From: a virus
Lineage: Duplodnaviria; Heunggongvirae; Uroviricota; Caudoviricetes
DNA length: 32,484 bases
Reading direction: 5' to 3' (one strand)
IMG/VR virus record: IMGVR_UViG_2548876858_000013
The notes beneath the pieces were generated by a model. The model ran no database searches. It was given only the letters and a program-made list of their open reading frames with translations, and was not told where the DNA came from. Both the position numbers and the translations under genes were made by a program. Below, in pieces: positions 3,588 to 25,236 of the stretch (positions are counted from its first letter, which is position 1; the number at the start of each line of letters is the position of its first letter).

Positions 3588-3859
3588 GTATTCGTATTGA
3601 AATTGGCGAACGTTATGTCGTTACCAGTGACAGCTTTCAGTTTATTCTCCACGAGAAAAAGAGAGCTGAAAGCGGTAAAAACGCCGGTCAGGAATGGCTG
3701 GCGGTGGTTGGTTATTACCCGAAATTAAGCCAGCTCGTTTCCGGCCTGATGCATCACGATATTCTGACCGGAAGCGCAAAGTCTTTTGCTGATTTAAACG
3801 CGCAGGTTGAGCAACTCAGCAAGCGTTGTTCAGAGGCTTTTGGCTCATATGGCCGTTAA
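3584..3859 (+). CDS. Hypothetical early protein preceding gene A
   Basis: 91-aa ORF, start overlaps the upstream stop (ATGA), GGAG upstream. Confidence 0.55.
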   Translation: MSIRIEIGERYVVTSDSFQFILHEKKRAESGKNAGQEWLAVVGYYPKLSQLVSGLMHHDILTGSAKSFADLNAQVEQLSKRCSEAFGSYGR

Positions 3860-6125
3860 AGCCTCCGGGCGTTTTGTCCCTCCGTCAGCATTTGCCGCAG
3901 GCACCGGTAAGGCGTTTACCGGTGCTTATGCATGGAACGCGCCACGCGAGGCTGTCGGGCGCGAAAGACCCCTTACACGTGACGAGATGCGTCAGGTGCA
4001 AGGTGTTTTATCCACGATTAACCGCCTGCCTTACTTTTTGCGCTCGCTGTTTACTTCACGCTATGATTACATCCGGCGCAATAAAAGCCCGGTGCACGGG
4101 TTTTATTTCCTCACAGCCACTTTTCAGCGTCGTTTATGGCCGCGCATTGAGCGCGTGAATCAGCGCCATGAAATGAACACCGACGCGTCGTTACTGTTTC
4201 TGGCAGAGCGTGACCACTATGCGCGCCTGCCGGGAATGAATGACAAGGAGCTGAAAAAATTTGCCGCCCGTATCTCATCGCAGCTTTTCATGATGTATGA
4301 GGAACTCTGCGATGCCTGGGTGGATGCCCATGGCGAAAAAGAATCGCTGTTTACGGATGAGGCGCAGGCTCACCTGTATGGTCATGTTGCTGGCGCTGCA
4401 CGTGTTTTCAATATTTCCCCGCTCTACTGGAAAAAATACCGTAAAGGACAGATGACCACGAGGCAGGCATATTCTGCCATTGCCCGCCTGTTTAACGATG
4501 AGTGGTGGACTCATCAGCTTAAAGGCCAGCGTATGCGCTGGCATGAGGCGTTACTGATTGCTGTCGGGGAGGTCAATAAAGACCGTTCTCCTTATGCCAG
4601 TAAACATGCCATTCGTGATGTGCGTGCACGCCGCCAGGCAAATCTGGAATTTCTTAAATCGTGTGACCTTGAAAACAGGGAAACCGGCGAGCGCATCGAC
4701 CTTATCAGTAAGGTGATGGGCAGTATTTCTAATCCTGAAATTCGCCGGATGGAGCTGATGAACACCATTGCCGGTATTGAGCGTTACGCCGCAGCAGAGG
4801 GTGATGTGGGGATGTTTATCACGCTGACCGCGCCGTCAAAGTATCACCCGACACGTCAGGTCGGAAAAGGCGAAAGTAAAACCGTCCAGCTAAATCACGG
4901 CTGGAACGATGAGGCATTTAATCCAAAGGATGCGCAGCGTTATCTCTGCCATATCTGGAGCCTGATGCGCACGGCATTCAAGGATAATGATTTACAGGTC
5001 TACGGTTTGCGTGTCGTCGAGCCACACCACGACGGAACGCCGCACTGGCATATGATGCTTTTTTGTAATCCGCGCCAGCGTAACCAGATTATCGAAATCA
5101 TGCGTCGCTATGCGCTCAAAGAGGATGGCGACGAAAGAGGAGCCGCGCGAAACCGTTTTCAGGCAAAACACCTTAATCGGGGCGGTGCTGCGGGGTATAT
5201 CGCGAAATACATCTCAAAAAACATCGACGGCTATGCACTGGATGGTCAGCTCGATAACGATACCGGCAGGCCGCTGAAAGATACTGCTGCGGCTGTTACC
5301 GCATGGGCGTCAACGTGGCGCATTCCGCAATTTAAAACGGTTGGTCTGCCGACAATGGGGGCTTACCGTGAACTACGCAAATTGCCTCGCGGTGTCAGCA
5401 TTGCTGATGAGTTTGACGAGCGCGTCGAGGCTGCACGCGCCGCTGCAGACAGTGGTGATTTTGCGTTGTATATCAGCGCGCAGGGCGGGGCAAATGTCCC
5501 GCGCGATTGTCAGACTGTCAGGGTCGCCCGTAGCCCGTCGGATGACGTTAACGAGTACGAGGAAGAAGTCGAGAGAGTGGTCGGCATTTACGCGCCGCAT
5601 CTCGGCGCGCGTCATATTCATATCACCAGAACGACGGACTGGCGCATTGTGCCGAAAGTTCCGGTCGTTGAGCCTTTGACTTTAAAAAGCGGCATCGCCG
5701 CGCCTCGGAGTCCTGTCAATAACTGTGGAAAGCTCACCGGTGGTGATACTTCGTTACCGGCTCCCACACCTTCTGAGCACGCCGCAGCAGTGCTTAATCT
5801 GGTTGATGACGGTGTTATTGAATGGAATGAACCGGAGGTCGTGAGGGCGCTCAGGGGCGCATTAAAACACGACCTGCGAACGCCAAACCGTCAGCAAAGA
5901 AACGGAAGCCCGTTAAAACCACATGAAATTGCACCATCGGCCAGACTGACCCGGTCGGAAAGAATGCAAATTACCCGTATCCGCGTTGACCTTGCTCAGA
6001 ACGGTATCAGGCCGCAGCGATGGGAGCTTGAGGCGCTGGCGCGTGGCGCGACCGTAAATTATTACGGGAAATCTTTCAATTATCAGGTCGCTGATGAGTG
6101 GCCTGGATTTTTGTTACCCATTTGA
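3849..6125 (+). CDS. A: Rolling-circle replication initiation endonuclease (P2 gpA-like)
   Basis: Long ORF 3807..6125; start may be the ATG at 3849 (MAVKASG...) or 3807. Contains an HUH-like motif (PHWHMMLF, about 5038-5060) and a paired-tyrosine motif (GYIAKYISK, about 5195-5220) characteristic of phiX174/P2-type Rep proteins; P2 gene A position. Confidence 0.85.
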   Translation: MAVKASGRFVPPSAFAAGTGKAFTGAYAWNAPREAVGRERPLTRDEMRQVQGVLSTINRLPYFLRSLFTSRYDYIRRNKSPVHGFYFLTATFQRRLWPRIERVNQRHEMNTDASLLFLAERDHYARLPGMNDKELKKFAARISSQLFMMYEELCDAWVDAHGEKESLFTDEAQAHLYGHVAGAARVFNISPLYWKKYRKGQMTTRQAYSAIARLFNDEWWTHQLKGQRMRWHEALLIAVGEVNKDRSPYASKHAIRDVRARRQANLEFLKSCDLENRETGERIDLISKVMGSISNPEIRRMELMNTIAGIERYAAAEGDVGMFITLTAPSKYHPTRQVGKGESKTVQLNHGWNDEAFNPKDAQRYLCHIWSLMRTAFKDNDLQVYGLRVVEPHHDGTPHWHMMLFCNPRQRNQIIEIMRRYALKEDGDERGAARNRFQAKHLNRGGAAGYIAKYISKNIDGYALDGQLDNDTGRPLKDTAAAVTAWASTWRIPQFKTVGLPTMGAYRELRKLPRGVSIADEFDERVEAARAAADSGDFALYISAQGGANVPRDCQTVRVARSPSDDVNEYEEEVERVVGIYAPHLGARHIHITRTTDWRIVPKVPVVEPLTLKSGIAAPRSPVNNCGKLTGGDTSLPAPTPSEHAAAVLNLVDDGVIEWNEPEVVRALRGALKHDLRTPNRQQRNGSPLKPHEIAPSARLTRSERMQITRIRVDLAQNGIRPQRWELEALARGATVNYYGKSFNYQVADEWPGFLLPI

Positions 6126-6385
6126 GTAAAAATGCAGCGTGATTTTATATGCCTTTGAATGGATTATGCGAAGCGCCTCTAAGGCAGATGAGGAGCAATA
6201 GCATGCTGAAGTAGAAGGCTAAATTGTATTGAATCGCTAGCATGTAATTTAAGGCAGCTATTTGATTCGAGTCATAAAAGAGCATCTATTTCGGCTAATA
6301 AAACCATTGCGAGTGACCTTTTGTCGAAGCATAATTCATCTCGAGCGAAGTCTTGCTAGTCTTTCATCGGAATGATGACAGGCGC

Positions 6386-6415
6386 AAAAAAACCACCCTG
6401 GCAGGTGGTTTTTTT
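6386..6415. terminator. Bidirectional intrinsic terminator-like hairpin
   Basis: AAAAAAACCACC / loop CTGGCA / GGTGGTTTTTTT: an A-tract and T-tract flanking a GC stem; 13 nt downstream of the minus-strand small ORF stop and about 260 nt downstream of gene A. Confidence 0.6.
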
Positions 6416-6427
6416 GTTTGAAGCATA

Positions 6428-6541
6428 CTAAAGAATAATACTTACATGGATATTACTGACGTTTACTGACAAACCACTTGGACTACCATATGGATAGCCA
6501 AAGAGGGCCAGAACGAGAATGCAGTAATAGCACTTCTTCAT
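6428..6541 (-). CDS. Small hydrophobic protein (37 aa), candidate small membrane peptide
   Basis: Minus-strand ORF MKKCYYCILVLALFGYPYGSPSGLSVNVSNIHVSIIL, translated by hand. Near-consensus RBS GGAGGAGAT immediately upstream of the ATG and a hairpin terminator just downstream. Below the 60-aa cut-off of the ORF track. Confidence 0.4.
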   Translation of the reverse strand: MKKCYYCILVLALFGYPYGSPSGLSVNVSNIHVSIIL

Positions 6542-7112
6542 ATCTCCTCCTGTAAGCAGAGGGCAATTTCCGCCGATATATGCGCTTCTGAGGCGGAGTT
6601 ACTATTTAGCGAAGTCTTGCCCTGAAATAATGCTCTGTTTAAACGCAAAGTGATCTGGCATATCACCGAACAGAGAGCCTGAACAACACAACATATAGTA
6701 TGTCGTTGTTTCTGGTTGCATTTTATGTTGTGTAATACTGGTTTTGCATCAAGGATGTTTGAGCTTTTTTTGATATAGCTCAAAGTAAAAAGCAGGGACT
6801 ACGGATGATAAGGTATTGAAAGCAATGTAAATTTTTTAAAGTTATTGGTGGCTAAAAAATGCACGGTTTCAATATGGCGGACTTAAATAAGCAATTAAAA
6901 AAGTCATAAATATCACTAAAATCATGGTGTTACGTTTTTTTGTGGGAGCTGCGGTGACGCTTAAGTTGATTTGTCATTAAATAAGCCGTGCATGCAACAA
7001 GTGAATGTTTTTGCATGCGTCGGGGATGCCCGTTCCAGCTGCTCGCGGTCAGAGCTGGTGCGGATCCATAGTATCTATGCAACTGCATTAAAACCGCCAC
7101 ATGAAGCGGGCG

Positions 7113-7131
7113 GGCGAGGCGGGGAAAGCAC
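7113..7131. other. cos site (P2-type 19-nt cohesive end GGCGAGGCGGGGAAAGCAC)
   Basis: Exact 19-mer that I recall as the P2 cohesive end and start of the P2 genome, followed here by TGCGCGCT as I recall for P2; sits in a GC-rich patch within otherwise AT-rich DNA between A and Q. Confidence 0.65.
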
Positions 7132-7355
7132 TGCGCGCTCCATTAACGACCATTACATAATACTATTAGCCTATGAATCGAGTCATGAGATGTTATCTTT
7201 ACGATTCAGGCGAGTGCTTTCGTTACGATGAGTTAGTTTAAGCACACTATCTGCACAAAAAATAATCTGTTGAAGCGATTCATCATTCCTAACGCTCTAG
7301 AGTCTTAAATAAAAATATGTAAAATGCGTAAAATTTTCTGAATTATGGATCAGCT

Positions 7356-8438
7356 ATGCTTGGAACTTCATCACAAAGAGCTATTTCAGTACAACATGTT
7401 GATTTAAATGTAAAGTGTTGGGTCGTTAGACCTGGGATTAAGTATAGATATTTTGCAGACTTCCTTGAACGCAATATGGTTGCTACTGCTCACTTGGATA
7501 GGTTAAGTCCAGATCAAATTGACTTTAATGATGAAATTAACCATGAAAATATTAATCAAAAGGTTGATGGGTTAGATACTATTGGTTCAAGAAATATTCA
7601 TACCCAAATTGAAAATTTCCTCATAGATATGCAGGTCGGTGATGTTGTTTTCACTTTGTCAGGTGATATGGTTGTTCCTGGAGTTATTGCATCTTCCGCG
7701 TATTTTGAGCGTGAATGTTTAGGTAATAATGAAGGGTTTCATGTAAGACGTAGAGTCACATGGGGAGAGCCAGTTCGCAGACGAGAGATTCCATTAGCTC
7801 TTCAGAAATCGTTTACTGCATACCAGACCGTATTCTCTTTGGGCGGGAAGTCAGAAGAAGTACTGCATTGGTTAATGTCATTCTTTATAACGGATAATAT
7901 TTTCTGTACTAGCTTAAGAGTCGAGCAAGCAGAAGCCATTCGGCATCATACTCTTAAGCAGCTGGCTGAGCTGGTCGATAGAGTGCAGGTACTTGCGCTA
8001 TTAATTGGCGAAGAGTTTGATGGCGAGTATACAAACGAAGTTGTTCAGTTTGAGATGGAAAGACTTTCTAATAATGGAGAGTTATCCTTGACTGCTCAAC
8101 AAATGTTGATGTCTCCGGGGGATGTTTGGCTACAATTTAAAACAAATAATAGAAAGGCCGGAATTGCGTTTATGTTAATTATGGGGGCCATTTTTAATCA
8201 TGATGTAGCCTTCGCTTCAACGGTTGATAATCGTATAAGTGAGGAACTTCGATCTCATATTGAAGGGAAAAAAGAGGTTGCAATGGATGGATTAAACTTT
8301 GATAGAGTTTCTCAAGTTCTAGAGTTGCGTTTAAAAAGACAAAATAGAGGCTTTGTTTCTGCTCGTCCAACGAACCGTGAGATCGGACAGGGGATCAATT
8401 TCCCTGAAGATGGTGATGCGAGGCATGCGAGTGACTAA
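7356..8438 (+). CDS. Hypothetical cargo protein, 360 aa, soluble; first gene of a two-gene operon
   Basis: Long ORF in AT-rich DNA; weak RBS (GGAT), so the true start could be downstream. No nucleotidyltransferase GS..DxD motif and no clear HEPN or PD-(D/E)xK motif seen by eye. Confidence 0.7.
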   Translation: MLGTSSQRAISVQHVDLNVKCWVVRPGIKYRYFADFLERNMVATAHLDRLSPDQIDFNDEINHENINQKVDGLDTIGSRNIHTQIENFLIDMQVGDVVFTLSGDMVVPGVIASSAYFERECLGNNEGFHVRRRVTWGEPVRRREIPLALQKSFTAYQTVFSLGGKSEEVLHWLMSFFITDNIFCTSLRVEQAEAIRHHTLKQLAELVDRVQVLALLIGEEFDGEYTNEVVQFEMERLSNNGELSLTAQQMLMSPGDVWLQFKTNNRKAGIAFMLIMGAIFNHDVAFASTVDNRISEELRSHIEGKKEVAMDGLNFDRVSQVLELRLKRQNRGFVSARPTNREIGQGINFPEDGDARHASD

Positions 8439-8440
8439 CT

Positions 8441-9130
8441 ATGAACTTTGAATTTGTAAAAGAACACTGGCTGATAATAGGCATGCTATTCATAGCATGT
8501 CTATTATTAATTTTAAAATTCAAAGATATTTACAGAACACACGATCAGTTTAATAACGTCGTGATGTCATTGTGCGCTGTTTTGACACTTGTGTGGGGAG
8601 GATATACTTTTGATGTTTTGCACCAAAGGGATAAGGCAGAAGCTGATCTTATAGAGTTAAGAAATAGAATTAGAAATACAGAATCGACATTTTTTAATGT
8701 TGACGTTAATGTTGTTAAAATCGATGATGTGTTTTATATAAAGCCTATTGTGACTATTAGGAATAACAGTAATGAGCGAATTTATGTGAAGCTTAATAAC
8801 AAGTCCCTTGCTGTTAGTCGTGTTTTATCGGCCGGTGCAAAGCAAGTCGCTACGGAAGTTTTTTATCCAAATTATTATGAGGAGTTGGCTGTTCTTAATG
8901 AAGAAAGTAGCTCGCAAGGAAAAGCTAAAAATATACCTTTATATGACATATCCGTTCCTATCTCTGCTGAAAGACGCTTGAACTATCTTGTTTCGACAAA
9001 AGAAAAAGGAATGTATTATGTAACATTTAGTGCTGAGGCAATGAACGAAGATGGCTCGCCTGTTTCTAAATACATAAATGGGAAAAAATCTATATGGTTT
9101 TCTTCTTCATATATTGAAGTTAAAGATTGA
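8441..9130 (+). CDS. Hypothetical cargo membrane protein, 229 aa, two N-terminal TM helices plus a beta-rich-looking soluble domain
   Basis: ATG 2 nt after the upstream stop (TAACTATG). Hydrophobic segments WLIIGMLFIACLLLIL and VVMSLCAVLTLVWGGYTF; the remainder is rich in alternating hydrophobic/polar stretches. AT-rich. Confidence 0.7.
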   Translation: MNFEFVKEHWLIIGMLFIACLLLILKFKDIYRTHDQFNNVVMSLCAVLTLVWGGYTFDVLHQRDKAEADLIELRNRIRNTESTFFNVDVNVVKIDDVFYIKPIVTIRNNSNERIYVKLNNKSLAVSRVLSAGAKQVATEVFYPNYYEELAVLNEESSSQGKAKNIPLYDISVPISAERRLNYLVSTKEKGMYYVTFSAEAMNEDGSPVSKYINGKKSIWFSSSYIEVKD

Positions 9131-9225
9131 ATTTCTATTAAACCATATAGTAATTGAAGGTGTTGGGGGTTAATCTTGCCTGGATTGCATAGAATCACGC
9201 CGCCTGGAGACGGCGCTAAGGGTAC

Positions 9226-10254
9226 TTAATTAGATTCTAGACTGTAATCTTTAAAGCGGATGACCTCCTGACCGAGCCAGCCGTTTATCTCGCGGATCCT
9301 GTCCTGTAACGGGATAAGCTCATTGCGGACAAAGACCTTTGCCACTTTCTCAATATCACCCAGCGACCCGACGTTCTCCGGCTTGCCGCCCATCAACTGA
9401 AAGGGGATGCGGTGCGCGTCCAGCAGGTCAGCGGCGCTGGCTTTTTTGATATTAAAAAAATCGTCCTTCGTTGCCACTTCACTGAGCGGGATAATTTTAA
9501 TGCCGTCGGCTTTCCCCTGTGGGGCATAGAGAAACAGATTTTTAAAGTTATTGCGGCCTTTCGACTTAACCATGTTTTCGCGAAGCATTTCGATATCGTT
9601 GCGATCCTGCACGGCATCGGTGACGTACATGATGTATCCGGCATGTGCGCCATTTTCGTAATACTTGCGGCGGAACAGCGTGGCCGACTCATTCAGCCAG
9701 GCAGAGTTAAGGGCGCTGAGATATTCCGGCAGGCCGTACAGCTCCTGATTAATATCCGGCTCCAGCAGGTGAAACACGGAGCCGGGCGCGAAGGCTGTCG
9801 GCTCGTTGAAGGACGGCACCCACCAGTAAACATCCTCTTCCACGCCACGGCGGGTATATTTTGCCGGTGAGGTTTCCAGTCTGATGACCTTACCGGTGGT
9901 GCTGTAACGCTTTTCCAGAAATGCATTACCGAACACCAGAAAATCCAGCACAAAGCGGCTGAAATCCTGCTGGGACAGCCACGGATGCGGGATAAATGTC
10001 GAGGCCAGAATATTGCGTTTGACGTAAATCGGGGAGCTGTGATGCACGGCAGCACGCAGGCTTTTTGCCAGACCGGTAAAGCTGATTGGTGGCTCATACC
10101 ATCTGCCGTTACTGATGCACTCGACATAATCCAGAATGTCACGGCGGTCGAGTACCGGCACAGGCTCGCCAAAGGTGAATGCCTCCATTTTCGGGGCGCT
10201 GGCGGTCATTTTTTTTGCCGCAGGTTGCGGTGTTTTCCCTTTTTTCTTGCTCAT
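9226..10254 (-). CDS. Q: Portal protein (P2 gpQ-like)
   Basis: 342-aa ORF, leftward, next to the terminase gene; matches P2 Q position and approximate length. Confidence 0.9.
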   Translation of the reverse strand: MSKKKGKTPQPAAKKMTASAPKMEAFTFGEPVPVLDRRDILDYVECISNGRWYEPPISFTGLAKSLRAAVHHSSPIYVKRNILASTFIPHPWLSQQDFSRFVLDFLVFGNAFLEKRYSTTGKVIRLETSPAKYTRRGVEEDVYWWVPSFNEPTAFAPGSVFHLLEPDINQELYGLPEYLSALNSAWLNESATLFRRKYYENGAHAGYIMYVTDAVQDRNDIEMLRENMVKSKGRNNFKNLFLYAPQGKADGIKIIPLSEVATKDDFFNIKKASAADLLDAHRIPFQLMGGKPENVGSLGDIEKVAKVFVRNELIPLQDRIREINGWLGQEVIRFKDYSLESN

Positions 10255-12026
10255 CAGTAAAACTCCAGAATGGTGGATGTCAGCGGGGTGCTGATACCGG
10301 CGGTGAGTGGCTCATTTAACAGGGCGTGCATGGTCGCCCAGGCGAGGTCGGCGTGGCTGGCTTCCTCGCTGCGGCTGGCCTCATAGGTGGCGCTGCGTCC
10401 GCTGCTGGTCATGGTCTTGCGGATAGCCATAAACGAGCTGGTGATGTCGGTGGCGCTGACGTCATATTCCAGACAGCCACGGCGGATGACGTCTTTTGCC
10501 TTGAGCACCATTGCGGTTTTCATTTCCGGCGTGTAGCGGATGTCGCGCGCGGCGGGATAGAACGAGCGCACGAGCTGGAACACGCCGACACCGAGGCCGG
10601 TGGCATCAATACCGATGTATTCGACGTTATATTTTTCGGTGAGTTTGCGGATAGATTCCGCCTGGGTGGCAAAGTCCATGCCTTTCCACTGGTGACGCTC
10701 AAGTATTCTGAATTTGCCACCGGCCACCACCGGCGGTGCCAGTACCACGCATCCGGCGCTGTCGCCACGGTGTGACGGGTCGTAACCAATCCATACCGGA
10801 CGGGAGCCGAACGGATTGGCGGCAAACGGCGCATAGTCTTCCCATTCTTCCAGCGTGTCGACCATGCAGCGTTGCAGCTCCTCGAACGGGAACACCGACG
10901 CCTTGTCGTCAACAAATTCACACATGAACAGGTTTTTAAAATCGTCGGCGCTGTTTTCACGTTTGAGCTGCTCAATGTCGAACAGTGTGCAGCCACCTTT
11001 CAGGGCGTCCTCAATGGTGACAATCTGCCGCCACTGGCCGTCCGCACAGAGAAGACCTCCGGCAAGTGCGTTATGACTGACGTCGATTTCCACGCGTTCA
11101 GCGGCGCTGGCGCGTCCCCGGTTAAACAGTTCACCGGACCAGAACGGATAGGCGTCGTGCGCCAGCGTGGACGGGGTGGAGAAATAGGTCGAGCGCAGGT
11201 GACTCTGTGAGGCCATACCTGATGCCACCTTACGCAGTACCTGAAAATTCGGGATCCAGAAAATCTCGTCGACGTACAGGTCGCCGTTATGGCTCTGCGC
11301 GGTGTTGGAGTTGGTGCCGAGAAAAATCAGTTTTGCGCCGTTATTGCCCAGGACAATCGGGTCACCGGTCAGGTCAACGTCAACCAGCCGGGCAAAGGCG
11401 ATGATGTATTCGCGGAACACATACGCCTGTGTTTTACTGGCCGACAGAAAAATCTGGTTATGACCGGTTTTCAGGGCGCGCAGCAGCGCCTCGCGGGAAA
11501 AATAAAACGTCGCGCCAATCTGGCGGGATTTCAGGATATCGCGGATGCGGTGCTCAAGCCCGGCGCGATACCAGTGCAACTGATATTCGAAAGACTGCTC
11601 AAAGAAAATCTGCTCCAGCTTTTCGATGGCTTCGTCACTGAAAAAATTCTTTTTCGGTTTGCGACGCCCGCCTTTGTTGCGGTTAGCGACGTTCGGATTA
11701 AGGTCTGCCTCGTTGCCGGTCTGGCTGTAGCGGTTGACCCGTGCCAGTCGTTCAATCTGGCGTCCCAGCAGGTCAATTTCCTTGAAGTCACCGCCGGTTT
11801 TCTGCGGTTTGATGATGAGCCGGGTCAGCCGCGCTTCCAGACTCATTTCGACACGGCTGATGGGGGCAACGCTGTCCCAGCCGTCGCGCTGTTTCCAGCT
11901 CTGCACCGTCGGGCGTTTCATCTGCAACATGGCGGCAATCTGCGGCACGGAAAACCCCTGCCAGTACAGCAGCGCCGCCTGACGACGCGGGTCGTGTAAA
12001 AGGGTGGTGTCTGTGGTGATGGTCAT
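10254..12026 (-). CDS. P: Terminase large (ATPase) subunit (P2 gpP-like)
   Basis: Start taken as the ATG at 12024-12026 with GAGG five nt upstream, giving 590 aa (recalled P2 gpP length); the ORF track start at 12056 is a TTG. Stop overlaps the Q start by 1 nt. Confidence 0.9.
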   Translation of the reverse strand: MTITTDTTLLHDPRRQAALLYWQGFSVPQIAAMLQMKRPTVQSWKQRDGWDSVAPISRVEMSLEARLTRLIIKPQKTGGDFKEIDLLGRQIERLARVNRYSQTGNEADLNPNVANRNKGGRRKPKKNFFSDEAIEKLEQIFFEQSFEYQLHWYRAGLEHRIRDILKSRQIGATFYFSREALLRALKTGHNQIFLSASKTQAYVFREYIIAFARLVDVDLTGDPIVLGNNGAKLIFLGTNSNTAQSHNGDLYVDEIFWIPNFQVLRKVASGMASQSHLRSTYFSTPSTLAHDAYPFWSGELFNRGRASAAERVEIDVSHNALAGGLLCADGQWRQIVTIEDALKGGCTLFDIEQLKRENSADDFKNLFMCEFVDDKASVFPFEELQRCMVDTLEEWEDYAPFAANPFGSRPVWIGYDPSHRGDSAGCVVLAPPVVAGGKFRILERHQWKGMDFATQAESIRKLTEKYNVEYIGIDATGLGVGVFQLVRSFYPAARDIRYTPEMKTAMVLKAKDVIRRGCLEYDVSATDITSSFMAIRKTMTSSGRSATYEASRSEEASHADLAWATMHALLNEPLTAGISTPLTSTILEFY

Positions 12027-12199
12027 GAATACCTCGCCGTGATGAATACACGGCAAGGCTACTGAGTCGCGCCCTGCGATTCGCTAAGGTGCTGTTGTGT
12101 CAGTGATAAGCCATCCGGGACTGATGGCGGAGGATGCGCATCGTCGGGAAACTGATGCCGACATGTGAATCCTCTAATCACTATTCAGGACTCCTGACA
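12027..12199. promoter_or_regulatory. Divergent late promoter region for the P-Q and O-N-M-L operons, inferred by position
   Basis: Intergenic region between divergently transcribed P and O, as in P2. I searched for an exact TGT-N12-ACA activator site and did not find one. Confidence 0.35.
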
Positions 12200-18297: not shown

Positions 18298-19083
18298 TTA
18301 TGAGTGGTTTTTATTTGATGCTTTGTATTCTAAAACCTTCTTATTGGCGTAAAGGAATTTTGTATATGACAGGAATATAAGCAGACCTGAAATGAAATAG
18401 GTTAGGGATATTATTAATAATGTTTTTCTGTGGCTGTTATTATCTTTAATCTCCTGACTTAACCATTCGGAGTCCTCCTTGTTTAGCTGTAAGAGCTTAT
18501 TGCAGGCGATCTCGGGAAGTGTGTCTTTTATAAATACGTTTTGCAGACTCTTGCAATCGGCAAGGCTATAAGTTTTATTAAATTCAACCGTTTTATTTTT
18601 GAAGGATAAAAGAACTTTGTCACTATAAACATAGTACATCATATTTTTATATGGTATACCTATGGCATCCCTTACTATAGCGGATTGTTCATTGTGTATA
18701 TAACATGCGAAGAGAATATAAATAATACTGGCCAGAATTACAATTATTGTTTTAATTATGTGTGGTGGTTTTGTTATGTCACCCCAGATGCGAGTAAGGA
18801 AAAAATACGATGTTTTTAGTTTTCCATCAATCAGTCCCTGCTGTATCATTCTCACATTTTCAATGCCTGATACATTGATTCCGTTAATTATTTTAAATAG
18901 TTGAATGTCGCGCCACTCGCGGTCAAGTCTTTTTAATTTTTTGTCTGAATATCCAAAATTGAAATAATGTGCAATAAGCCTCATAAGGTTACTTTTACCA
19001 AAGCTAAAAAATGCTAATACTGCAAAGCTACAAAGGAAAAAAACGATTAGCCCCCACACATTAGTCACATTATAGCTGACCAT
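18298..19083 (-). CDS. Hypothetical cargo membrane protein, 261 aa, three predicted TM helices
   Basis: Strong RBS (AAGGAG six nt upstream of the ATG at 19081-19083); very AT-rich; hydrophobic segments near the N-terminus (VWGLIVFFLCSFAVLAFFSF), middle (IIKTIIVILASIIYILFACYI) and C-terminus (LLIISLTYFISGLLIFLSY). Sits at the S-V variable locus. Confidence 0.75.
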   Translation of the reverse strand: MVSYNVTNVWGLIVFFLCSFAVLAFFSFGKSNLMRLIAHYFNFGYSDKKLKRLDREWRDIQLFKIINGINVSGIENVRMIQQGLIDGKLKTSYFFLTRIWGDITKPPHIIKTIIVILASIIYILFACYIHNEQSAIVRDAIGIPYKNMMYYVYSDKVLLSFKNKTVEFNKTYSLADCKSLQNVFIKDTLPEIACNKLLQLNKEDSEWLSQEIKDNNSHRKTLLIISLTYFISGLLIFLSYTKFLYANKKVLEYKASNKNHS

Positions 19084-21592: not shown

Positions 21593-23722
21593 ATGAGCAC
21601 AAAATTCAGAACCGTTATCACCACTGCCGGTGCAGCAAAGCTGGCAGCGGCAACCGCGCCGGGAGGGCGGAAGGTCAACATTACCACGATGGCCGTCGGG
21701 GATGGCGGTGGTAAATTGCCTGTCCCGGATGCCGGACAGACCGGGCTTATCCATGAAGTCTGGCGACATACGCTGAACAAAATCAGCCAGGACAAACGAA
21801 ACAGTAATTATATTATCGCAGAGCTGGTTATTCCGCCGGAGGTGGGTGGTTTCTGGATGCGTGAGCTTGGCCTGTACGATGATGCGGGAACGTTAATTGC
21901 CGTGGCGAACATGGCCGAAAGTTATAAACCTGCCCTTGCCGAAGGCTCAGGGCGTTCGCAGACCTGCCGCATGGTCATCATCGTCAGCAGTGTGGCCTCA
22001 GTGGTGCTGACCATTGACACCACAACGGTGATGGCGACGCAGGATTACGTTGATGACAAAATTGCAGAGCATGAACAGTCACGACGTCACCCGGACGCCT
22101 CGCTGACCGCAAAAGGTTTTACTCAGTTAAGCAATGCGACCAACAGCACGTCTGAAACACTGGCCGCAACGCCGAAAGCGGTAAAGGCCGCCTATGACCT
22201 GGCTAACGGGAAATATACTGCGCAGGATGCCACCACAGCGCGAAAAGGTCTTGTCCAGCTCAGTAGTGCCACCAACAGCACGTCTGAAACGCTCGCCGCA
22301 ACACCAAAAGCGGTAAAGGCCGCGTATGACCTTGCTAACGGGAAATACACTGCACAGGACGCCACCACAGCGCGAAAAGGTCTTGTCCAGCTCAGTAGCG
22401 TCACCAACAGCGATTCTGAAATGCTTGCGGCAACGCCAAAGGCGGTTAAGACAGCGTATGACCTTGCTAATGGGAAATACACTGCACAGGATGCCACCAC
22501 GGCGCGGAAAGGTCTTGTTCAGCTCAGTAGCGCCACCAACAGCGATTCTGAAACGCTGGCTGCAACGCCAAAGGCGGTTAAGACAGCGTATGACCTTGCT
22601 AACGGGAAATACACTGCACAGGACGCCACCACAGCGAGAAAAGGCCTTGTCCAGCTCAGTAGCGCCACCAACAGCGATTCTGATACGCTGGCCGCAACAC
22701 CAAAAGCGGTGAGGTCTGCCTATGACAATGCTGAGAAACGTCTTCAGAAAGATCAGAACGGCGCGGATATTCCTGATAAAAGATTATTCCTGCGCAATAT
22801 TGGAGCAACAAATTCAACAACCATGTCTTTTAGTGGTGGTACAGGATGGTTCAGGCTGGCAACTGTAACCATGCCACAGGCCAGTTCCGTGGTTTACATA
22901 AGTCTGATTGGTGGTGCCGGGTATAATGTTAACTCCCCTATGCAGGCTGGTATATCTGAACTTGTTCTTCGTGCGGGAAATGGAAATCCAAAAGGTCTTA
23001 CTGGTGCGTTATGGCGACGGACCTCGGTTGGATTTACTAATTTTGCATGGGTGAATACATCCGGTGATACCTATGATGTTTATGTTGAAATAGGTAATTA
23101 CGCCACAGGTGTTAATATTCAGTGGGATTATACCAGTAACGCCAGCGTAACGATTCATACATCACCAACTTATACAGCGAATAAACCAACAGGCCTGACA
23201 GATGGAACTGTATATGTAATTTACAGTTCGCACATTAAACCGACTGCTGCTGATGTTGGGGCGTTATCATTATCTGGAGGTCAATTGAATGGTGCACTGG
23301 GCATCGGTACATCCAGTGCTCTTGGCGGTAACTCGATTGTTTTGGGTGATAATGACACGGGCTTTAAACAAAATGGCGACGGTAATCTGGATGTTTATGC
23401 TAATAACGTCCATGTTATGCGCTTTGTCTCCGGTAGCATTCAAAGTAATAAAACCATAAATATTACGGGGCGTGTTAATCCCTCGGATTACGGTAACTTT
23501 GATTCCCGCTATGTCCGGGATATCCGGCTTGGTGGTGCTGCCACATACAAACCTGCGAACAATGGCATGACATGGACACATCAGGCACCATCCGGGTGTG
23601 TATATTCCGGCATTATTGTTCAGGATACCGGCTCAAACTCTGCCGATAACATTGGTGGCGTATATTACAGGCCGGTGCAGAAATACATTAACGGGACATG
23701 GTATAACGTGGTGCAGGTATAA
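21593..23722 (+). CDS. H: Tail fiber protein (P2 gpH-like) with internal tandem repeats
   Basis: 709 aa after the baseplate genes; conserved N-terminal region, a central block of 44-aa tandem repeats, and a more AT-rich C-terminal region. Confidence 0.9.
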   Translation: MSTKFRTVITTAGAAKLAAATAPGGRKVNITTMAVGDGGGKLPVPDAGQTGLIHEVWRHTLNKISQDKRNSNYIIAELVIPPEVGGFWMRELGLYDDAGTLIAVANMAESYKPALAEGSGRSQTCRMVIIVSSVASVVLTIDTTTVMATQDYVDDKIAEHEQSRRHPDASLTAKGFTQLSNATNSTSETLAATPKAVKAAYDLANGKYTAQDATTARKGLVQLSSATNSTSETLAATPKAVKAAYDLANGKYTAQDATTARKGLVQLSSVTNSDSEMLAATPKAVKTAYDLANGKYTAQDATTARKGLVQLSSATNSDSETLAATPKAVKTAYDLANGKYTAQDATTARKGLVQLSSATNSDSDTLAATPKAVRSAYDNAEKRLQKDQNGADIPDKRLFLRNIGATNSTTMSFSGGTGWFRLATVTMPQASSVVYISLIGGAGYNVNSPMQAGISELVLRAGNGNPKGLTGALWRRTSVGFTNFAWVNTSGDTYDVYVEIGNYATGVNIQWDYTSNASVTIHTSPTYTANKPTGLTDGTVYVIYSSHIKPTAADVGALSLSGGQLNGALGIGTSSALGGNSIVLGDNDTGFKQNGDGNLDVYANNVHVMRFVSGSIQSNKTINITGRVNPSDYGNFDSRYVRDIRLGGAATYKPANNGMTWTHQAPSGCVYSGIIVQDTGSNSADNIGGVYYRPVQKYINGTWYNVVQV
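22113..22722 (+). repeat. In-frame tandem repeat inside the tail fiber gene, about 4.6 copies of a 132-bp (44-aa) unit
   Basis: Repeated peptide KGLVQLSSATNS(T/D)SETLAATPKAVKAAYDLANGKYTAQDATTAR; copies begin near 22113, 22245, 22377, 22509 and 22641 with a few substitutions. Confidence 0.85.
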
Positions 23723-24537: not shown

Positions 24538-25236
24538 TTATATTTTTCCATGCTTTTCACCGTCAAATCGAATCATGCTAGGATCAAGAAAATAAATCAA
24601 ATCAATTAACGCATGTTGTATTCTGATTAGCCTTTCTTTATAAGGCTCGATATTTTTTGTCATATTTATCACTTCATTGTTTAAATCTAAAAAAAATGGT
24701 TCATTGACAAAGCAATTTTCCTTTGTGAAACCGCCGTAACCTATGCAATCAAATCCAGCATCTGTTGATATCAACATCTTTTCCGCAATAGCTCTCTGCT
24801 CTCCTATGAAAAACATAAAATACTGACCAAAGGCGTCTGTTTGGATTAATGAGTTAATATTGTTCTGTAATCTAATAAACTCCCTCATTTTTTTATTTTT
24901 TTCTAGACTAAGGTATTGAATGTCTATGCGGGCAGCTTCTGTCCATGCAAAGAACTGGGAAAAAAGAAAAACCGTATTTTTGATAACATAATCTTGTTGG
25001 CGCTTACTCCCATTATGATAAAACTCTTCAATAAACCCTAATTCTAATATGTTATAAATGCGGCTTTGTAAGTCTGAAGCTGAGCGAATTAACGGTTCAA
25101 TATAGTACTGATGTTTTCTCCTTACATCCAGTGTTTCATTGAGCTTGTTTATTCTATTCTGATTATAGGTAGATATAGCAATAGAGATTATAGATATTGC
25201 ACCACCAATAAGGCTTGAAATTAATGCCACACTCAT
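24538..25236 (-). CDS. Hypothetical cargo protein, 232 aa, N-terminal TM helix plus soluble domain
   Basis: RBS AAGGA seven nt upstream of the ATG at 25234-25236; very AT-rich; N-terminal hydrophobic segment VALISSLIGGAISIISIAISTY; at the G-FI variable locus. Confidence 0.7.
   Translation of the reverse strand: MSVALISSLIGGAISIISIAISTYNQNRINKLNETLDVRRKHQYYIEPLIRSASDLQSRIYNILELGFIEEFYHNGSKRQQDYVIKNTVFLFSQFFAWTEAARIDIQYLSLEKNKKMREFIRLQNNINSLIQTDAFGQYFMFFIGEQRAIAEKMLISTDAGFDCIGYGGFTKENCFVNEPFFLDLNNEVINMTKNIEPYKERLIRIQHALIDLIYFLDPSMIRFDGEKHGKI

Follow-up and report, generated by a model that had tools for sequence, protein, structure and literature searches.

What do two adjacent genes of no assigned function contribute to the P2-like prophage that carries them? 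The window considered here, i.e. the whole stretch of 32,484 nucleotides that was analysed, is a P2-like prophage as judged from its list of open reading frames and from the annotation of the equivalent genes in Escherichia coli Ec-U9-2. Gene A (7356-8438; this and all further coordinates refer to the + strand unless marked otherwise), taken from the same list, encodes a protein of 360 amino acids (RefSeq WP_024234794.1), and gene B (8441-9130), encoding a protein of 229 amino acids (WP_024234795.1), begins 2 nt past the stop codon of gene A. The two probably constitute an uncharacterised anti-phage sensor-and-killer pair, and the arguments for this reading are drawn from their location, from the predicted fold of A, from the predicted membrane helices of B, and from the company that both genes keep in other genomes.

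The pair is bordered on the left by a P2 gpA-like replication endonuclease gene (3807-6125; 'replication endonuclease' in the equivalent Ec-U9-2 locus, L001) and on the right by a P2 gpQ-like portal protein gene (9226-10254, - strand; 'phage portal protein' in L001), next to a terminase gene (10254-12056, - strand) whose equivalent is also annotated in Ec-U9-2. A 19-nt sequence, GGCGAGGCGGGGAAAGCAC (7113-7131), which we take to be the P2 cohesive end (cos), has a single exact match, and none in 100 shuffles; the A/B module is located between it and the portal gene. This putative cos 19-mer cuts the interval in two, with A/B on the portal side. Between the gpA-like and portal genes, G+C falls to 0.37-0.40, against about 0.55 outside. 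The gpA-cos-gpQ interval of P2 is an experimentally validated defence hotspot (Rousset et al. 2022, PMC9122126), whose supplementary hotspot table lists WP_024234794 and WP_024234795 as 'hypothetical + hypothetical', and the A/B pair has this very position between gpA and gpQ. In strain Ec-U9-2 (L001, 1529-3711), a helix-turn-helix gene and a reverse-transcriptase gene fill the gpA side, and an identical A/B pair stays on the portal side.

Scans of the region 6000-9300 with Rfam and for promoters and terminators gave nothing over threshold or over shuffled expectation. Within it, about 1 kb downstream of gpA (6126-7078) is devoid of long open reading frames. More than 2,000 records match this segment in all, the best E. 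coli genomes at about 99% identity, and none of the matches listed has an annotated feature beneath it. A hairpin with a T-run behind it lies at about 6386-6416, and Rfam gives only sub-threshold matches (RNAI-like, 26 bits against a gathering score of 47 bits). The segment may have a conserved role in regulation or packaging, or encode an unannotated RNA.

Other islands are apparent elsewhere in the window. Within the tail and baseplate region, an island of low GC (0.38) encodes a predicted membrane protein of 261 amino acids (18298-19083, - strand), which belongs to phrog_2407 (function not assigned), has no match in Pfam or PADLOC, and is probably another moron. GC reaches its minimum for the window (0.32) in an island that follows the tail-fibre genes, presumably at the equivalent of the P2 Z/fun site; this island carries an ORF of 232 amino acids (24538-25236, - strand) assigned to phrog_5606 (function not assigned), with a weak PADLOC match to the RTasTM of DRT systems (E 1.1e-6). 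The 709-residue tail-fibre ORF at 21593-23722 features about five tandem repeats of about 40 residues (…AQDATTARKGLVQLSSATNS-SETLAATPKAVK-AYDLANGKYT…).

Gene A has family labels without a function. RefSeq names WP_024234794.1 a 'DUF8426 domain-containing protein', and a precomputed assignment to PF28530 exists for P0001, a protein identical to A, and for most homologues, which places A in DUF8426 (PF28530). Since P0218, a protein that shares only the N-terminal domain with A (see below), also carries PF28530, the model is suggested to span at least this domain. The protein is further found in phrog_10226 (function not assigned), and is matched by four HMMs of PDC-S02, a candidate defence system of PADLOC, the best of them (E 2.4e-12) aligning residues 20-206 with profile positions 3-185 of 324 and leaving the C-terminal half unmatched. 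A HMMER search of 1.84 billion cluster representatives returned 896 relatives of gene A at E≤1e-3, nearly all of 330-400 amino acids; of 71 diverse relatives sampled from these, 69 are matched by the PDC-S02 HMMs. No family was found for A by hmmscan at E≤10 in a Pfam-A copy that lacks the PF28530 model; scans of A and B against Pfam-A, NCBIfam and PHROGs gave sub-threshold noise and a PHROG without function, and profile searches against PDB sequences gave only noise (MotB, a GNAT protein and alpha-1-antitrypsin, E 0.1-0.9). P0057, an E. coli protein of 135 amino acids, has exactly the sequence of A's N-terminal part; it stems from a truncated or split copy of the gene in some strains.

The sequence-only reading of this locus had pointed to a PUA/EVE-like pattern in the N-terminal region of A, namely the strings CWVVRPG (residues 21-27, 7416-7436) and MQVGDVVFTLSGDMVVPGVIASSAYFE (residues 92-118, 7629-7709). 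Both are present as read, the former forming strand beta-1 and the latter two strands, and comparison of homologues bears the pattern out. Invariant in 46 homologues of 38-74% identity are W22, V24, R25, G27, M92, G95, D96, F99, T100, P108 and G109, and W22, D96 and G109 are still invariant in the 71 diverse relatives, together with W136 in a third motif, RRRVTWG (residues 131-137, 7746-7766). Conservation of R25, R131 and V134 is 90% or more. What the sequence-only reading had picked up is therefore the family's conserved core and no coincidence. An AlphaFold2 model of A computed from the 46-sequence alignment (pLDDT 84.3, pTM 0.81) contains a PUA-like beta pseudo-barrel, with a helical insertion at residues ~45-91, in the domain formed by residues ~15-190 (7398-7925). 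Comparison of this model with known folds, the check that the same reading had proposed, returned folds of the YTH, ASCH and EVE type: lower-listed matches were YTH domains (8.4-6.8) and ASCH (6.6), followed by the m5C-binding N-terminal domain of Thermococcus gammatolerans McrB (6.3) and THYN1 (5.8). The top ~30 matches of Foldseek, which works by a different method, were YTH domains only, with probabilities up to 0.93, marginal E values of 0.02-0.2 and TM scores of 0.45-0.55. The expected match to a profile of the PUA clan did not materialise: neither A, by hmmscan against Pfam-A at E≤10, nor any of the 71 relatives matches EVE, YTH, ASCH, PUA or SRA, and PDB sequences searched with profiles yielded nothing PUA-like. 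The barrel is detectable from structure and not from the HMM searches run. Residues ~15-190 are modelled, with high confidence, as a divergent PUA-like (EVE/YTH-type) barrel, and the conserved residues W22, R25, F36, H46, F88, D96, R131 and W136 are compatible with a candidate base pocket.

The use of this domain in other proteins provides clues on its role. A profile search with the N-terminal domain returned 26 proteins, among them P0218, a metagenomic protein of 321 amino acids (L013, 772-1737; L014, 145-1110). Homology to the N-terminal domain of A covers its first ~150 residues (profile search, E 9.7e-11; hhalign probability 98.8%, E 7.8e-17), and its residues 181-296 constitute a Mrr_cat PD-(D/E)xK restriction nuclease domain (E 1.5e-21). 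By its domain content, P0218 resembles a type IV restriction enzyme that uses the reader domain of gene A, in a layout equivalent to the EVE-PD(D/E)xK arrangement described for such enzymes (PMC7641849). Moreover, 21 of the 71 relatives match, via the second half of the domain, internal positions ~321-427 of a PADLOC type II restriction endonuclease profile of 857 positions. The fusion to Mrr_cat and this profile match argue that the N-terminal domain is a portable module set on different outputs.

The output region of A itself is of a different kind. The sequence-only reading had seen no catalytic motif in the C-terminal half, and this holds: the mostly helical region of residues ~191-342 (7926-8381) has neither a recognisable fold nor a catalytic motif, and no nuclease or other catalytic domain was found anywhere in gene A. 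Pfam scans of ten distant relatives matching through the N-terminal half only gave no alternative known C-terminal domain. The region carries the motif MSPGDVW (residues 252-258, 8109-8129), with S253 and G255 invariant in the 71 distant relatives. Directly downstream lies a fully hydrophobic stretch, AGIAFMLIMGAIF (residues 268-280, 8157-8195), which exceeds every other part of the protein in hydrophobicity and is a helix at residues 266-279 in the model. The most hydrophobic 17-residue window falls at this position in 61 of the 71 relatives, and its mean Kyte-Doolittle value there is at least 1.6 in 44 of them. Short for a transmembrane span, the helix may simply lie buried at the centre of a helical bundle or be a latent membrane-inserting element, and is offered as a lead only. 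The last residues (343-360), of low confidence in the model, form a disordered tail (pLDDT < 50) with the motif FPEDGD (residues 349-354, 8400-8417), in which both P350 and D352 reach a conservation of 90% or more.

Gene B is predicted to encode a membrane protein with two transmembrane helices, at residues ~9-27 (8465-8521; Kyte-Doolittle 2.3-2.8) and ~38-56 (8552-8608; 1.7, with 1.6-2.0 in homologues), and both hydrophobic segments are conserved. They are followed by an invariant juxtamembrane motif, L-x-QRDKA (residues 60-66, 8618-8638), and by a C-terminal part that is beta-rich by the look of its sequence. No match to B was found in Pfam, PADLOC, PHROG or PDB. Counts of lysine and arginine fit a C-terminal domain on either the cytoplasmic or the periplasmic side; in the periplasmic case, only a short loop would be available for direct contact with A.

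Homologues of B lie immediately 3′ of homologues of A in five other genera, with a gap of 2 nt or with overlapping genes. Identities to A and B, respectively, are 74/79, 67/72, 49/53, 45/43 and 41/46%, so that the two proteins diverge in parallel, as expected of a co-inherited unit. In Citrobacter and Pantoea, the homologues are found on adjacent locus tags or on the same contigs; in Serratia, the pair adjoins icd; in Pectobacterium, it lies together with CcdAB, TacAT and AbiE in an integrase-flanked island; and in Pseudomonas grimontii (L009, 1801-3719 and 3935-5799), it is located directly downstream of a 322-aa ORF and an RVT_1 reverse-transcriptase gene. The module thereby adjoins a reverse-transcriptase gene twice, the other instance being Ec-U9-2 ('reverse transcriptase family protein'). 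A second P2-like hotspot with the pair is recognised in Enterobacter ludwigii by the sizes and order of its ORFs; there, an extra ORF of 357 amino acids without Pfam match (L008, 6544-7617) is situated between A/B and the portal gene.

The module is rare. An intact pair of at least 99.8% identity is present in 7 of 5,426 complete E. coli genomes, never as a single gene, and a locus search detected 3 loci only among species-representative genomes. It is absent from plasmid and sequenced-phage collections (no match to A by tblastn against PLSDB and INPHARED), and it also occurs outside prophages, in chromosomal islands.

Several known systems are close to A/B. The EVE-domain enzymes of type IV restriction (EVE-HNH VcaM4I, PDB 6yex; EVE-PD(D/E)xK, Bell et al. 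2020, PMC7641849) possess a nuclease, whereas none is fused to A or partnered with it, and the Pfam EVE profile is unmatched by A. As the output of A consists of a helical domain and the two-TM partner B, any effect would hit the cell membrane and not DNA. YTH domains, which are m6A readers and are represented by the YTH-like N-terminal domain of an archaeal McrB (PDB 6p0g), share only 3-16% identity with A; an AAA+ GTPase is missing from A/B, and the sequence of A gives no clue to a specificity for m6A or m5C. In PUA-Cal-HAD (bioRxiv 10.64898/2026.01.15.699771), a PUA-like sensor triggers abortive infection, and it shows that sensors of this type may bind a free modified nucleotide (m6-dAMP) rather than polymer. 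Its PUA-like motifs VWWGWWxKxxExxP and TPxYY are missing from A, and its effectors, a calcineurin-like phosphoesterase and a HAD phosphatase, deplete dNTPs, whereas A/B has a membrane protein. PADLOC PDC-S02 proteins are of similar length to A (~300-350 aa), but the matches on A, like nearly all those of ten distant relatives, cover only the N-terminal 140-185 positions of profiles of 308-346 positions, and PDC-S02 is defined as a single-gene system, unlike the A/B clade with its tightly coupled second gene in every case. A/B resembles an EVE/YTH reader module of type IV restriction, without the nuclease, and is a DUF8426 member related to PDC-S02 through the N-terminal domain only.

Parallels in architecture come from two-component abortive-infection systems of prophages or hotspots, in which the sensor is cytosolic and the effector sits in the membrane. 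RexA/RexB of phage lambda is one of them; another is the TIR + TM system of the P2-like phage AC1, located in the same P2 hotspot as A/B (PMC9122126). Like A/B, they are prophage-encoded and combine a soluble protein with a small multi-TM protein. RexA, RexB and TIR have no sequence or fold kinship with A/B, and both the type of sensor and the family of the partner differ. No description of a PUA-like reader combined with a novel helical domain and a dedicated two-TM partner was found in the literature searched.

Taken as a whole, a defence role of some kind for A/B is reasonably likely. A specific course of events, leading from the PUA-like sensor through the C-terminal region of A to B and the membrane, and so to abortive infection, is proposed tentatively, at somewhat short of an even chance. 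The PUA-like domain, for which domain shuffling suggests a sensor role, would bind a modified base in its candidate pocket, either a flipped-out base of phage DNA or RNA or the base of a free modified nucleotide released in infection; the latter ligand is plausible because the PUA-like domain of PUA-Cal-HAD binds m6-dAMP (bioRxiv 10.64898/2026.01.15.699771). Binding would change the C-terminal region of A, which would then engage B at the inner membrane or, in an alternative relay, act on the membrane directly. The membrane would be permeabilised or depolarised, and the infected cell would no longer support phage growth, to the benefit of the lysogen and its prophage. Transmembrane proteins have been discussed as suicide effectors of P2/P4 hotspot systems (PMC9122126). 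A wider extension of this proposal, which we consider rather doubtful, is that DUF8426/PDC-S02-type proteins at large (~900 clusters at 50% identity) form a large unrecognised immune class, in which a divergent EVE/YTH-like reader of a modified base or nucleotide would directly gate a helical membrane-acting module made up of the S-P-G turn and the hydrophobic helix, with the two-TM partner helping in the enterobacterial clade.

The alternative that survives best leaves the killing to A. Distant relatives of A stand alone, or are followed by an unrelated single-TM protein or by a likely unrelated lipoprotein; B is therefore limited to the enterobacterial/Pseudomonas clade and is not universally required. 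A might be a self-contained sensor-effector, in which the ligand would release the buried helix 268-280, downstream of the invariant S-P-G turn, for insertion into the membrane, by analogy with pore-forming colicins or Bcl-2-type 'inside-out' helical bundles, and B would be an accessory of its clade only (a membrane receptor, an amplifier, or an immunity or regulatory factor). We hold this alternative to be unlikely. The B of the distant member P0147 was ruled out as a homologue of gene B by BLASTP.

It is less probable still that A/B is a prophage moron unrelated to abortive infection, with B blocking superinfection or injection and A serving as a nucleic-acid-binding regulator, or with A binding modifications of host RNA or tRNA. 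RNA-modifying and housekeeping proteins, too, contain PUA-like folds (bioRxiv 10.64898/2026.01.15.699771), B is without similarity to any known effector, and small prophage transmembrane proteins can block injection, as suggested for YmfE (bioRxiv 10.64898/2026.09.05.749240). Furthermore, one distant PDC-S02 representative gave E. coli B no protection against T4, T5 and T7 (bioRxiv 10.1101/2024.09.26.614923), a result that also weighs against the course of events proposed above. However, the module is found in several defence-rich contexts, its sensor domain is common to the restriction-type nuclease fusion, and its presence in chromosomal islands outside prophages is an ill fit with a phage-specific housekeeping role. 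A toxin-antitoxin function was also considered, and the data speak neither for nor against it. That the PUA-like resemblance is a prediction artefact or chance topology, the N-terminal half being an unrelated alpha/beta domain, is very improbable; it would agree with the lack of any sequence profile tying the domain to EVE, YTH, ASCH or PUA, with the marginal Foldseek values and with the predicted nature of the structure.

Modified bases are typically read by PUA-like domains (EVE, YTH, SRA, ASCH), whose known examples in bacterial immunity mostly confer specificity on nucleases. The sensor-and-killer pair that A and B probably form couples such a reader to a domain without a recognisable fold and to a membrane protein, in a validated P2 defence hotspot. 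If active, it would extend the sensing of modifications or nucleotides to a membrane-level output, and, if the wider reading of the DUF8426 class were true, sensing in the style of type IV restriction would lead not to DNA cleavage but to abortive infection through disruption of the membrane. The pair is a compact two-gene system with clear sites for point mutants (W22, D96, W136, S253/G255 and helix 268-280), and, if active, it would provide the first functional handle on DUF8426 and on PADLOC PDC-S02, both of which are counted in many defence surveys without a mechanism.
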